Positions 46,830 through 47,900 of a stretch of DNA of 64,000 nt are shown in pieces (the stretch's first letter is position 1; every line of letters starts with the position of its first letter). The stretch is taken from NCBI GenBank assembly GCA_000004695.1, contig CM000151.3, positions 1,856,001 through 1,920,000 of the forward strand, given 5' to 3'. The notes beneath the pieces are model-generated. The model made no database searches and was not told where the DNA came from. It worked only from the letters and a program-made list of their open reading frames with translations. The DNA is from Dictyostelium discoideum. Its lineage: Eukaryota. A program made the translations under genes and the position numbers.

Positions 46830-47900
46830 TTTGAAATTACAATTTCGCAAATTTTATTAATATCTCTGATAAAACTTTTAATTTACTTTGAAAATGTAAA
46901 ATATTGGATTTGAAGATGAGATTGAGGATTCATTATTACTTATACAGCTGTGTCATTTGTATGGGGATTATTTCTTTTGGTTGAATCAGCAAAATTTAAA
47001 TGTTGACCAAATATAAATTTACCACCTAATCTTCCATAGGATGCTAAAATTCATAATGGTTATCTTTCTTCAATACCCAACCAACGACGACGACGACGAC
47101 GATGACAATGATTGGGTTGTATAATTTTGTTGTTTACTAATTAATTGAAATTGTGACCATAGGTCTTCTTGATAAGATTTACCACCAGTGATGATAAAAT
47201 TTGCTCTAAAATTATGTTTGCTAACCCAATTCCAATCAGAAGGTACACTATCAGGGTTATCATTTATAATTCTCTTTTTTAAATCTTACTCTCCCTTCAT
47301 TAATTAAAAGATATGGTGGTTCATTTGGAAATGAAATTTCATTCGATGAGCCAACTTTTAATTCTCTATGTGATTCTAGTGATTTTCTAACCCAATAACA
47401 TCTTTACCTATAGATTGATATAACCATTCACTAATATTATCAATATTACCACTACCACCACTACTACCACTAGTATTTGAGAAATCTTAATCGCCATATA
47501 ATAAACCATCAACTTTATCACCACAAACTTGAATTTGATCAAAAGCAAATATTGGATAATAAGATAATGGTATTGATAAAAATTTCACCTCTGGTGCAGT
47601 TAAAATTAATTTATCATTAATTAAATCGATTTCAGGTTTGAATCAATACTAAAATTGGTAACTTTTTTTGATTTATATAATTGCCTACCTGTGAATCCTT
47701 GGCACCAAAATTTTCTTACATTAAATAAATCTGTAATTTGTTAGTGATTTCAATTTTATACAAACACTTTGATTATAGTCTCTACAATTCATTCCAAAAT
47801 AACCATTTCCTCTATAGTATCTTGATGAATTCTACCATACATTTTTAAATTATCAATTAATTTATAATTTATTTCAATTTCATTATTATAGTTGTCATCT
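46830..47900 (-). pseudogene. Decayed inverted duplicate of the 3' roughly 1 kb of the mocos gene (MOSC-domain region plus 3' UTR).
   Basis: Minus-strand translation gives [50 protein letters not shown], against mocos [52 protein letters not shown]. Further matches: [35 protein letters not shown], and [12 protein letters not shown]. Even 3'-UTR strings (attgtaatttcaaaa) match. There are many stops, frameshifts and an internal deletion. No ORF of 60 aa or more is present in 46666..48182. Confidence 0.7.

Follow-up and report, generated by a model that had tools for sequence, protein, structure and literature searches.

A decayed mocos relic in Dictyostelium discoideum and its probable origin in a small chromosomal inversion

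Among 29 fixed inversions in Drosophila, 17 have unique sequence duplicated in inverted orientation at the breakpoints (PMC1885836). These duplications measure up to 1.9 kb, with an identity of 88 ± 5% between copies; most have decayed, 12 are found at one breakpoint only, and they reveal the polarity of the inversion (PMC1885836). Here we analysed a 64,000-nucleotide stretch of Dictyostelium discoideum AX4 chromosome 2 (the window), which contains a working mocos gene and a decayed, inverted part of the same gene (Table 1). Although an ordinary pseudogene, this relic appears to record how a small chromosomal rearrangement formed in a social amoeba, and the break-and-fill-in signature suggested at mocos is the one that dominates Drosophila inversions.

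A reading made from the sequence alone had noticed an inverted, stop-riddled, partial copy from the MOSC end of mocos and had taken it as the footprint of an old structural event; both points stood up to our analysis. With the low-complexity filter on, BLASTN returned two minus-strand blocks, pairing 11368-11959 with 47682-47108 (91.1% over 593 nt, E = 0) and 12032-12296 with 47079-46815 (89.9% over 268 nt, E ~1e-93), which refutes the possibility that the similarity was of low complexity only. The duplicate is genuine and far beyond chance, and mocos has no other match in the 64-kb window. The two copies are inverted relative to each other, consist of non-repetitive sequence and are 90-91% identical. 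In a global alignment, the relic (47685 to 46815, minus strand) pairs with mocos 11365..12296 over 862 aligned sites, with 61 substitutions (7.1%, JC K = 0.074) and 12 indels. It represents mocos from codon 712 to the stop (codons 712-1007, 891 nt of coding sequence) and at least 41 nt of the 3' flank, which is common to both copies. The relic does hold the MOSC end and 3' flank, the size being ~0.93 kb of the parent and not the last 1 kb. Two peptides quoted as conserved (12 and 28 residues) were found in the relic, and the suspected internal deletion was located at parent 11976-12031 (~44 nt net in the alignment). There is indeed no ORF of at least 60 aa in 46666-48182, the longest being 52 aa. 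An assembly artefact can be dismissed, because an independent assembly from a wild isolate contains the same relic, differing only in the lengths of homopolymer runs.

The relic had been placed at 46830-47900. It does lie there, but the upper limit was about 215 bp too far, since mocos homology begins abruptly at 47685, which corresponds to codon 712 within MOSC_N. No mocos similarity was detectable in 47686-48040: BLASTN, TBLASTX and Smith-Waterman comparisons of this stretch with the mocos 5' part and the upstream genes stayed within a null drawn from the window, and in-register identity between relic and mocos upstream of 47685 was at background level. The longer spacer that reaches the next gene (47686..48182) likewise resembles neither mocos nor its upstream genes to a significant degree, and is probably far-side (Y) sequence attached by the rearrangement. 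One peptide in the 47686-48040 stretch, RGNGYFGMNC, recalls the MOSC C-terminus; it has no Pfam match and was treated as chance.

Table 1. Positions in the 64-kb window of the two mocos copies and of the features that flank them
Feature	Position	Strand	Basis
Working mocos, 1007 aa	9232..12255	+	Pfam: Aminotran_5 146-580, MOSC_N 671-810, MOSC 832-963
mocos segment duplicated in the relic	11365..12296	+	Relic/mocos alignments
Block between the two mocos copies, 34.5 kb, proposed inverted segment	12297..46814	.	D. dimigraforme collinearity
1379-aa gene	13111-17250		
DDB_G0272714, 358 aa, convergent with the relic	45589..46665	+	Exact match to XP_644866.1
Ancestral intergenic remnant between the mocos and DDB_G0272714 3' ends, with an expanded A/T run	46666..46814	.	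D. dimigraforme spacer alignment
mocos relic (pseudogene fragment)	46815..47685	-	BLASTN and global alignment to 11365-12296
Relic block 2: MOSC C-terminal part, stop codon, first 41 nt of 3' flank (parent 12032-12296)	46815..47079	-	89.9% over 268 nt
Internal-deletion scar	47080..47107	-	Parent 11960-12031 (72 nt) replaced by 28 nt of (GTC)n-like sequence; 21 residues lost
Relic block 1: last two-thirds of MOSC_N, linker, first half of MOSC (parent 11365-11959)	47108..47685	-	91.1% over 593 nt
Non-mocos spacer, relic to next gene	47686..48182	.	Homologous to D. cf. discoideum L002 12165-12655, ~60-80% identity
NOG1_N-domain gene, 514 aa, two introns, new neighbour of the relic	48183..49965	+	Gene call, Pfam; unique splice solution = 514 aa

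The relic is disabled by three premature stops, about eight frameshifting indels, 5' truncation at codon 712 and deletion of the CxRC motif, which is invariant in 22 MOSC proteins and is lost here through the internal deletion. Even after frame repair, its translation scores below the Pfam cut-offs for MOSC_N (20.2 bits, cut-off 25) and MOSC (16.4 bits, cut-off 22.7), so that with CxRC gone it does not qualify as a functional MOSC domain. Substitutions between relic and mocos are spread nearly evenly over the three codon positions (5.9, 5.8 and 8.7%), and pairwise dN/dS is 0.47; between the D. discoideum and D. dimigraforme mocos genes, dN/dS is 0.054/0.365. At the 32 amino-acid differences between relic and working gene, the outgroup sides with the working gene 14 times and with the relic once; therefore nearly all changes occurred on the relic lineage. 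The singletons in a 407-site alignment fall in the same way, with 25 on the D. discoideum relic branch, 23 on the branch of the corresponding relic in D. cf. discoideum and seven on that of the working gene. Disabling mutations combined with a neutral substitution pattern identify an unprocessed pseudogene, dead and evolving neutrally, with no sign of function.

A residual function, whether the relic supplied antisense or small RNA directed at mocos, for example by read-through from DDB_G0272714, or encoded a short protein, would be most unlikely given this pattern. The geometry is suggestive, since the relic's plus strand runs antisense to mocos and starts 150 bp after the DDB_G0272714 stop codon, and a spliced 166-aa gene-caller model spans the relic in GCA_054883475.1. 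However, AATAAA signals and an A-run lie between that stop codon and the relic's unique part, substitutions are even over codon positions, and the relic's branch is as long as that of the D. cf. discoideum relic, which is decaying independently and has different large deletions. The 166-aa model has no Pfam match, could not be rebuilt with up to four canonical GT-AG introns, and is probably an annotation artefact; the relic has no Rfam match, and no Rfam family was found across the whole window. Bolder readings of the pair, in which either the 34.5-kb block still flips recurrently in populations by way of the two copies or antisense read-through from the relic feeds RNAi that dampens mocos, would be similarly far-fetched.

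The relation between the two copies was examined by synteny with D. dimigraforme, using a 21-kb locus (L003) at 201427-222476 of contig JBTAPM010000056.1. This locus covers window positions 36.5-46.4 kb of the block between the copies and ends 2.6 kb short of the window's left edge, with 24 kb of the block (12.3-36.5 kb) lying outside it. It contains one intact mocos of 1039 aa and no fragment. The gene is encoded on the minus strand, downstream of the DDB_G0272714 orthologue at a distance of 360 bp, in the same position and orientation as the D. discoideum relic. Beyond it are the orthologues of the genes at 8270-8881, 7483-8075 and 2667-6398, in inverted order; these are the genes upstream of the working D. 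discoideum mocos, and they are collinear with those upstream of the D. dimigraforme gene. Positions 113-10858 of L003 are collinear with window 36548-46449, and positions 11371-21050 match the window from 12295 down to 2669 in inverted orientation. Gene order thus indicates that mocos and DDB_G0272714 were neighbours ancestrally, and that a part of the block spanning 36.5-46.7 kb or more has had its orientation reversed relative to mocos.

Each copy of mocos retains one ancestral flank, the working gene its upstream genes and the relic DDB_G0272714 together with the ancestral spacer. When aligned with the D. dimigraforme spacer between mocos and DDB_G0272714, the 46666..46814 interval scored 51, compared with a null maximum of 43 over 218 comparisons; the flank downstream of the working gene scored 30. 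The same interval is collinear with the flank of the D. cf. discoideum relic. Logan contigs end at the A-run immediately before the relic. By these comparisons the relic marks the ancestral mocos locus, because the D. dimigraforme gene is intact there and the relic's downstream flank matches the ancestral spacer, the polarity being drawn from one outgroup species and the relic's own logic. The working gene, for its part, has kept its ancestral upstream neighbours and has a new downstream junction. The sequence-only reading, in which the relic was a daughter copy 35 kb from its parent, is not supported; wherever a parent gene is seen beside a decayed copy, reading the pair as parent and daughter is unsafe without an outgroup.

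The idea that the relic belongs to a segmental-duplication footprint shared with the other duplications in the window also failed. Those duplications (two decayed P450 copies, a partial copy of a SAP-domain gene and a triplet of His-rich genes) are local, direct and tandem, and have no flanks or geometry in common with the mocos pair. A single large duplicated segment uniting 6-19 kb with 43-50.5 kb was rejected, as TBLASTX found that the two regions share only the mocos piece. The junction sequences have no further match in the window. A homology search aimed at the second breakpoint, made with a low-complexity-free part of the 1379-aa gene, gave zero matches.

D. cf. discoideum, the sister species, shares the order seen in D. 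discoideum, with the DDB_G0272714 orthologue, a relic and the NOG1_N-domain gene. Its relic retains mocos codons 297-345 and about 848-1007, and the large deletions differ between the two species. Since other parts of mocos survive there, the original duplicate was at least 2.2 kb long and the deletions are lineage-specific. We compared the working D. discoideum gene, the two relics and the D. dimigraforme gene in a four-taxon alignment of 407 sites. The site patterns were star-like, with 32 singletons on the D. dimigraforme branch, and the informative sites split 1/2/1. The distance between the relic and its parent is smaller than that between working mocos and D. dimigraforme. Together, the star-like patterns and this smaller distance place the event after the D. 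dimigraforme split, at about the time when D. discoideum and D. cf. discoideum diverged. The relic-parent dS is 0.126, and the species dS for neighbouring genes of D. discoideum and D. cf. discoideum is 0.20-0.31. Gene conversion was considered as the cause of the low relic-parent dS. It is not needed and is probably not the cause, as dS at mocos is low anyway (0.365 to D. dimigraforme against 0.663 for its neighbour, about half) and only 1/407 sites group relic with working gene. On this dating the original duplicate would have arisen just before the two species separated, so 'ancient', as the event had been called, holds in the sense that it is old, with the qualification that it came after D. 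dimigraforme had split off.

We propose that the relic was left at the ancestral mocos locus by a rearrangement, which was probably a single inversion with a staggered break. The block now at ~12.3-46.8 kb would have inverted in the ancestor shared by D. discoideum and D. cf. discoideum, one of the two breaks being made as staggered cuts across the mocos 3' part. Once these were filled in and the ends joined, whatever lay between the cuts would have been present twice, in inverted orientation, a stretch of at least 2.2 kb reaching from codon 297 or earlier to 40-75 nt beyond the stop. One copy would have remained joined to the mocos 5' part and the upstream neighbours, and because it did, mocos remained whole. 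The other would have stayed with the old downstream neighbour, DDB_G0272714, and travelled with it to the opposite end of the flipped block, there becoming joined to sequence upstream of the NOG1_N-domain gene. On this model the 1379-aa gene would formerly have been adjacent to the NOG1_N-domain gene. Truncated, promoter-less and functionless, this second copy would then have lost sequence independently in the two species. We infer that the whole 12.3-46.8 kb block flipped in one event, brought about by staggered breaks. The junctions carry only A/T runs, with no transposon, tRNA gene, terminal inverted repeat or target-site duplication found there, and the locus points to break and fill-in rather than transposon-mediated recombination. 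Two observations were counted against the inversion: no duplication is detectable at the second breakpoint, and a duplicate of at least 2.2 kb is above the Drosophila maximum.

Much of the same signature, a relic with the ancestral downstream flank and a working copy with the upstream genes, is also predicted if the mocos region (from the ankyrin gene to mocos, at least 10 kb) was copied in inverted orientation ~35 kb away and the original mostly deleted. The D. cf. discoideum relic, which implies an original duplicate far longer than the present 0.87 kb, would fit such a move, and duplication of the whole gene would explain why both relics appear to have begun to decay only around the species split. 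We consider it unlikely, as it requires two large events, a copy of at least 10 kb and a deletion of at least 8 kb, within the short interval before the split, and in neither species is any trace of the 5' part of mocos or of its upstream genes detectable in the stretch from the relic to the NOG1_N gene. A two-step history, with a partial inverted duplicate of mocos arising near the NOG1_N gene and homologous recombination between the copies then flipping 34.5 kb, would leave an end state indistinguishable from that observed, and inverted repeats are a classic substrate for inversion. This history demands an additional, unexplained duplication, is the less parsimonious route for breakpoint duplicates of unique sequence according to Ranz et al. 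(PMC1885836), and finds no mosaic or crossover signal in the four-taxon site patterns; we regard it as quite improbable.

Inverted copies ~91% identical and 35 kb apart, with other duplications nearby, could suggest a dispersed segmental duplication in which a piece of mocos was inserted as a daughter and then decayed. Such a piece would need to have inserted, by chance, in the very spacer and orientation where D. dimigraforme has its intact gene; moreover, the relic's flank continues the ancestral spacer, and the relic that D. cf. discoideum has at this site includes parts of mocos that are missing from the D. discoideum fragment, which makes this account highly improbable. A processed retropseudogene, copied from mocos mRNA by a non-LTR element, could explain the 5' truncation and the extension into the 3' UTR. 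Yet the relic has no sense-strand poly(A) at its 3' end, where there is a T-run like that of the parent; its flank is collinear with the ancestral spacer; there are no flanking direct repeats or target-site duplication; and the D. cf. discoideum relic holds a non-contiguous internal piece. tRNA genes are the usual target of Dictyostelium TRE elements, and the window has none. Lacking poly(A), target-site duplication, terminal inverted repeat and tRNA gene alike, retroposition, transposon capture and TRE involvement were rejected, and the retropseudogene has next to no chance of being correct.

Read as the product of a staggered-break inversion, the mocos relic would give both the polarity of the event, with the adjacency of mocos and DDB_G0272714 ancestral, and its age, just before D. 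discoideum and its cryptic sister separated. As an unprocessed pseudogene it is typical in being a DNA-level copy of part of a gene, with non-coding flank, stops, frameshifts and a neutral pattern; unlike the usual case, the relic holds the original locus and the working gene the new junction. The Dictyostelium tgrBC locus (Holland et al. 2025, PMC12745789), in the same genus, likewise contains decaying partial duplicates from local duplications and inversions. In contrast to that recurrent hotspot of many events, the mocos relic, which is fixed in two or more lineages, looks like the outcome of one event in a housekeeping region that is otherwise collinear. The nearest likeness is to the staggered-break inversions of the Drosophila melanogaster group (Ranz et al. 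2007, PMC1885836), with two inverted copies of a segment that was probably single-copy ancestrally, lying at the ends of a block whose orientation differs from the outgroup over the part compared, the second breakpoint being a predicted one here. The mocos case differs in occurring in a social amoeba, in the small size of the inverted segment (~34.5 kb) and in an original duplicate of at least 2.2 kb, as against at most 1.9 kb in Drosophila. As in the flies, one copy is whole and functional and the other has decayed by point mutations and small deletions, at an identity of ~90% compared with 88 ± 5%, and the duplicate tells which arrangement is derived.

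Self-comparison of the window under low-complexity filtering recovered the decayed mocos piece that the sequence-only reading had proposed, as a pair of minus-strand blocks matching the 3' end of the working gene. Aligned globally, parent 11365-12296 and reverse-complemented 46815-47685 have 862 aligned sites and 61 substitutions, a divergence of 7.1% (Jukes-Cantor 0.074), with 12 indels, about eight of them frame-shifting. Read in the parental frame, the relic begins with base 1 of codon 712, within the MOSC_N barrel, and holds three premature stops. The decayed, stop-bearing inverted copy described in that reading was thus confirmed, as were the peptides quoted from it and the lack of any ORF of 60 aa or more in 46666-48182. 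The internal deletion it reported corresponds to parent 11976-12031, which codes for 21 residues including a CxRC motif that is unchanged across 22/22 aligned MOSC proteins. The observation's one error was its extent, which had been placed at 47900; similarity falls to background upstream of 47685, and no method tried found a mocos match in 47686-48040. A protein-level scan found no mocos-like sequence in the window beyond the known copies. The relic is not an assembly artefact, as GCA_054883475.1, an independent long-read assembly from a wild D. discoideum isolate, contains it too. There the relic differs from that of AX4 only in homopolymer-run lengths, and the locus is 99.6% identical over 21 kb.

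The working gene has the complete molybdenum cofactor sulfurase architecture by Pfam. It is under purifying selection, with a dN of 0.054 and a dS of 0.365 against D. dimigraforme. Substitutions between relic and parent are spread nearly evenly over the three codon positions (5.9, 5.8 and 8.7%). Pairwise dS is 0.126 and dN 0.058, and the resulting dN/dS of 0.47 is the expectation for one constrained lineage and one free lineage. To polarise the 32 amino-acid differences, the closest homologue in the database served as outgroup; it has the working gene's residue at 14 and the relic's residue at one. The frame-repaired relic translation fell under the Pfam cut-offs for MOSC_N and MOSC alike. The relic is an ordinary pseudogene, evolving neutrally. 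With neutral substitutions and lineage-specific deletions, nothing in its sequence appears to point to a function, and it has no Rfam match. Its plus strand is antisense to mocos and begins 150 bp past the DDB_G0272714 stop, from which it is separated by polyadenylation signals and an A-run. The GenBank annotation of GCA_054883475.1 covers the relic with a spliced 166-aa gene model (window 46940-47842, minus strand; 11343-12245 of the wild-isolate locus). This model has no domain match, could not be reproduced with up to four canonical GT-AG introns, and is probably an annotation artefact.

The gene order of D. dimigraforme changes how the two copies are read. Homology search found DDB_G0272714 orthologues in D. 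cf. discoideum and D. dimigraforme. One part of the D. dimigraforme locus is collinear with window 36.5-46.4 kb (a BCAS3-like gene, a PSMD5-like gene, RPN11, two more genes and the DDB_G0272714 orthologue). Directly after this orthologue lies an intact minus-strand mocos of 1039 aa, followed by orthologues of window 8270-8881, 7483-8075 and 2667-6398; in window coordinates, the whole segment past the DDB_G0272714 orthologue runs backwards from 12295 to 2669. By this gene order, D. dimigraforme mocos shares its downstream neighbour with the relic and its upstream neighbours with the working gene. The relic's downstream flank (46666-46814) matched the D. dimigraforme spacer between mocos and DDB_G0272714 with a score of 51, against a null maximum of 43 (n=218), while the working gene's flank past 12296 scored 30, the null level. 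The earlier view had been of a copy dropped away from its parent. On synteny and the flank match, it is instead the relic that occupies the ancestral mocos locus and the working gene that carries a new downstream junction. Put more broadly, we are highly confident that the relic is a rearrangement remnant at the ancestral locus.

In D. cf. discoideum the order is as in D. discoideum, with the DDB_G0272714 orthologue, a minus-strand mocos relic and the NOG1_N-domain gene, and everything rightward is collinear. This second relic fuses codons 297-345, from the aminotransferase domain, to codons ~848-1007; it has an (ATT)n expansion, and CNRY in place of the CxRC motif. Because this relic retains codon 297, the original duplicate reached at least from that codon into the 3' flank (2.2 kb or more), and a later deletion made the sharp codon-712 edge in D. 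discoideum. A 1-nt insertion in the 3' flank and the flank sequence itself are common to both relics, and homology between the two species extends over the spacer from relic to NOG1_N gene, which places the rearrangement before their split. This spacer (~355 bp, window 47690-48040 against 12165-12520 of the D. cf. discoideum locus) is ~60-80% identical, no better conserved than the pseudogene, and may derive from the former promoter side of the NOG1_N gene. A stretch of 27 nt kept by both relics and partly by D. dimigraforme is missing from the 3' flank of the working gene (window 12296 / 46788-46815). A direct ATTTA repeat edges this stretch in the relic and suggests that the working copy lost it by slippage, or else homology truly ends at 12296. 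The gene pair at window 43910-44965 (a 351-aa gene) and DDB_G0272714 is single in D. discoideum and D. dimigraforme and duplicated in tandem in D. cf. discoideum (4952-7740 and 8399-11092 of its locus). Two short Logan contigs (SRR26869267, SRR28564541), 96% identical to window 45491-46770, stop in an A-run just short of the relic; they point to public read sets that include a diverged isolate of the discoideum clade.

Four sequences were compared over 407 aligned sites: the two intact genes (D. discoideum and D. dimigraforme) and the two relics. Singleton changes numbered 7 in the working gene, 25 in the D. discoideum relic, 23 in the D. cf. discoideum relic and 32 in the D. dimigraforme gene. 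The sites backing the three possible groupings numbered 1, 2 and 1, and the four-sequence tree is a star. Both relics have decayed independently and at an equal rate since about the species split, with almost no shared pseudogene history earlier. From the working gene, which is constrained, the distance to the relics (0.10-0.11) is shorter than that to D. dimigraforme (0.12), so the duplication is later than the D. dimigraforme split. For neighbouring genes, dS between D. discoideum and D. cf. discoideum is 0.20-0.31, and to D. dimigraforme 0.37-0.66; against these values the relic-parent dS looks low. Gene conversion is not needed to explain this, as mocos synonymous divergence is about half its neighbour's.

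The window has a G+C content of ~20% and abundant poly-Asn coding tracts. Its other duplications had been thought to share one footprint with the mocos pair; they are local, direct tandem events unrelated to it, and the two mocos neighbourhoods have nothing in common besides the mocos piece. The decayed P450 copies adjoin a terpene synthase gene, and their ORF fragments match Pfam p450; neither keeps a long ORF. The mosaic copy of the adjoining SAP-domain gene joins the final 432 nt of that gene (93% identical) to two short 5'-region pieces, and its ORF repeats the C-terminus. The tandem triplet, with HHGHHGHH termini, is a local gene family expansion. One ORF matches TIG and a TgrO1-like immunoglobulin domain, so the proposed inverted block contains a member, or a fragment of one, of the tgr family.

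Coordinates of features in the window (domains of mocos by residue)
Feature	Position	Strand	Detail
mocos, working gene	9232-12255	plus	1007 aa
Aminotran_5	residues 146-580		Pfam
MOSC_N	residues 671-810		Pfam
MOSC	residues 832-963		Pfam
Match block 1	11368-11959 vs 47682-47108	minus	91.1% over 593 nt, E=0
Match block 2	12032-12296 vs 47079-46815	minus	89.9% over 268 nt, E ~1e-93
1379-aa gene	13111-17250		
TIG/TgrO1-like ORF	23250-24062	plus	270 aa
SAP-domain gene	26060-29245	minus	1061 aa
Mosaic partial copy of SAP-domain gene	29676-30318		
ORF in SAP copy	29773-30105		110 aa
Tandem small genes (n=3)	30873-31127, 31722-31991, 32648-32929	minus	His-rich, Pro/Val/Gln-rich proteins
DDB_G0272714	45589-46665		358 aa, exact match to AX4 protein, chromosome 2
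NOG1_N-domain gene	48183-49965		
Terpene synthase gene	55544-56632		
Decayed cytochrome P450 tandem copies (n=2)	57137-58721, 59928-62352	minus	blocks 93% and 87% identical
DDB_G0272929	62796-63311		exact match to AX4 protein, chromosome 2

The pattern consists of two inverted copies of ancestrally unique sequence, each with one ancestral flank, one whole and the other decayed, at the edges of a segment oriented differently from the outgroup. Over the part compared (36.5-46.4 kb), the orientation of block relative to mocos is opposite in D. discoideum and D. dimigraforme; the D. dimigraforme locus ends 2.6 kb before the left edge of the mocos block. We lean towards a single inversion by staggered breaks. 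The ancestral order would have been mocos on the plus strand, then the block, then the NOG1_N gene. One break would have fallen 40-75 nt past the mocos stop codon, with its staggered partner at least 2.2 kb upstream, inside mocos; the other break would have separated the 1379-aa gene from the NOG1_N gene. Inversion of ~34.5 kb (window 12297-46814) would then have kept mocos intact at the left end, with a 3' copy lacking a promoter still joined to DDB_G0272714 at the right. No transposon was found at the junctions of the mocos copies and no duplication was detectable at the second breakpoint; homology search with a low-complexity-free part of the 1379-aa gene gave no matches. Two other routes are possible and give the same picture for the regions compared: a larger mocos block could have been copied in inverted orientation elsewhere and the original then deleted, or inverted copies already present could have recombined in a second step.

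The relic is a breakpoint remnant marking the former mocos site, a history more informative than the one first proposed for it, and no earlier account of it turned up in the literature that could be searched. Drosophila inversions carry the same signature, which has been ascribed to staggered breaks repaired by fill-in and end-joining (PMC1885836). Breakpoint duplicates occur in 17 of the 29 inversions in that study, with a mean identity of 88% and the majority decayed, and in 12 inversions the duplicate is at one breakpoint only; its authors note that the polarity of change can be read from such duplicates (PMC1885836). The mocos pair resembles them in having inverted copies, split flanks, one decayed copy and no transposon, and the relic adds a new case to a known class of features.
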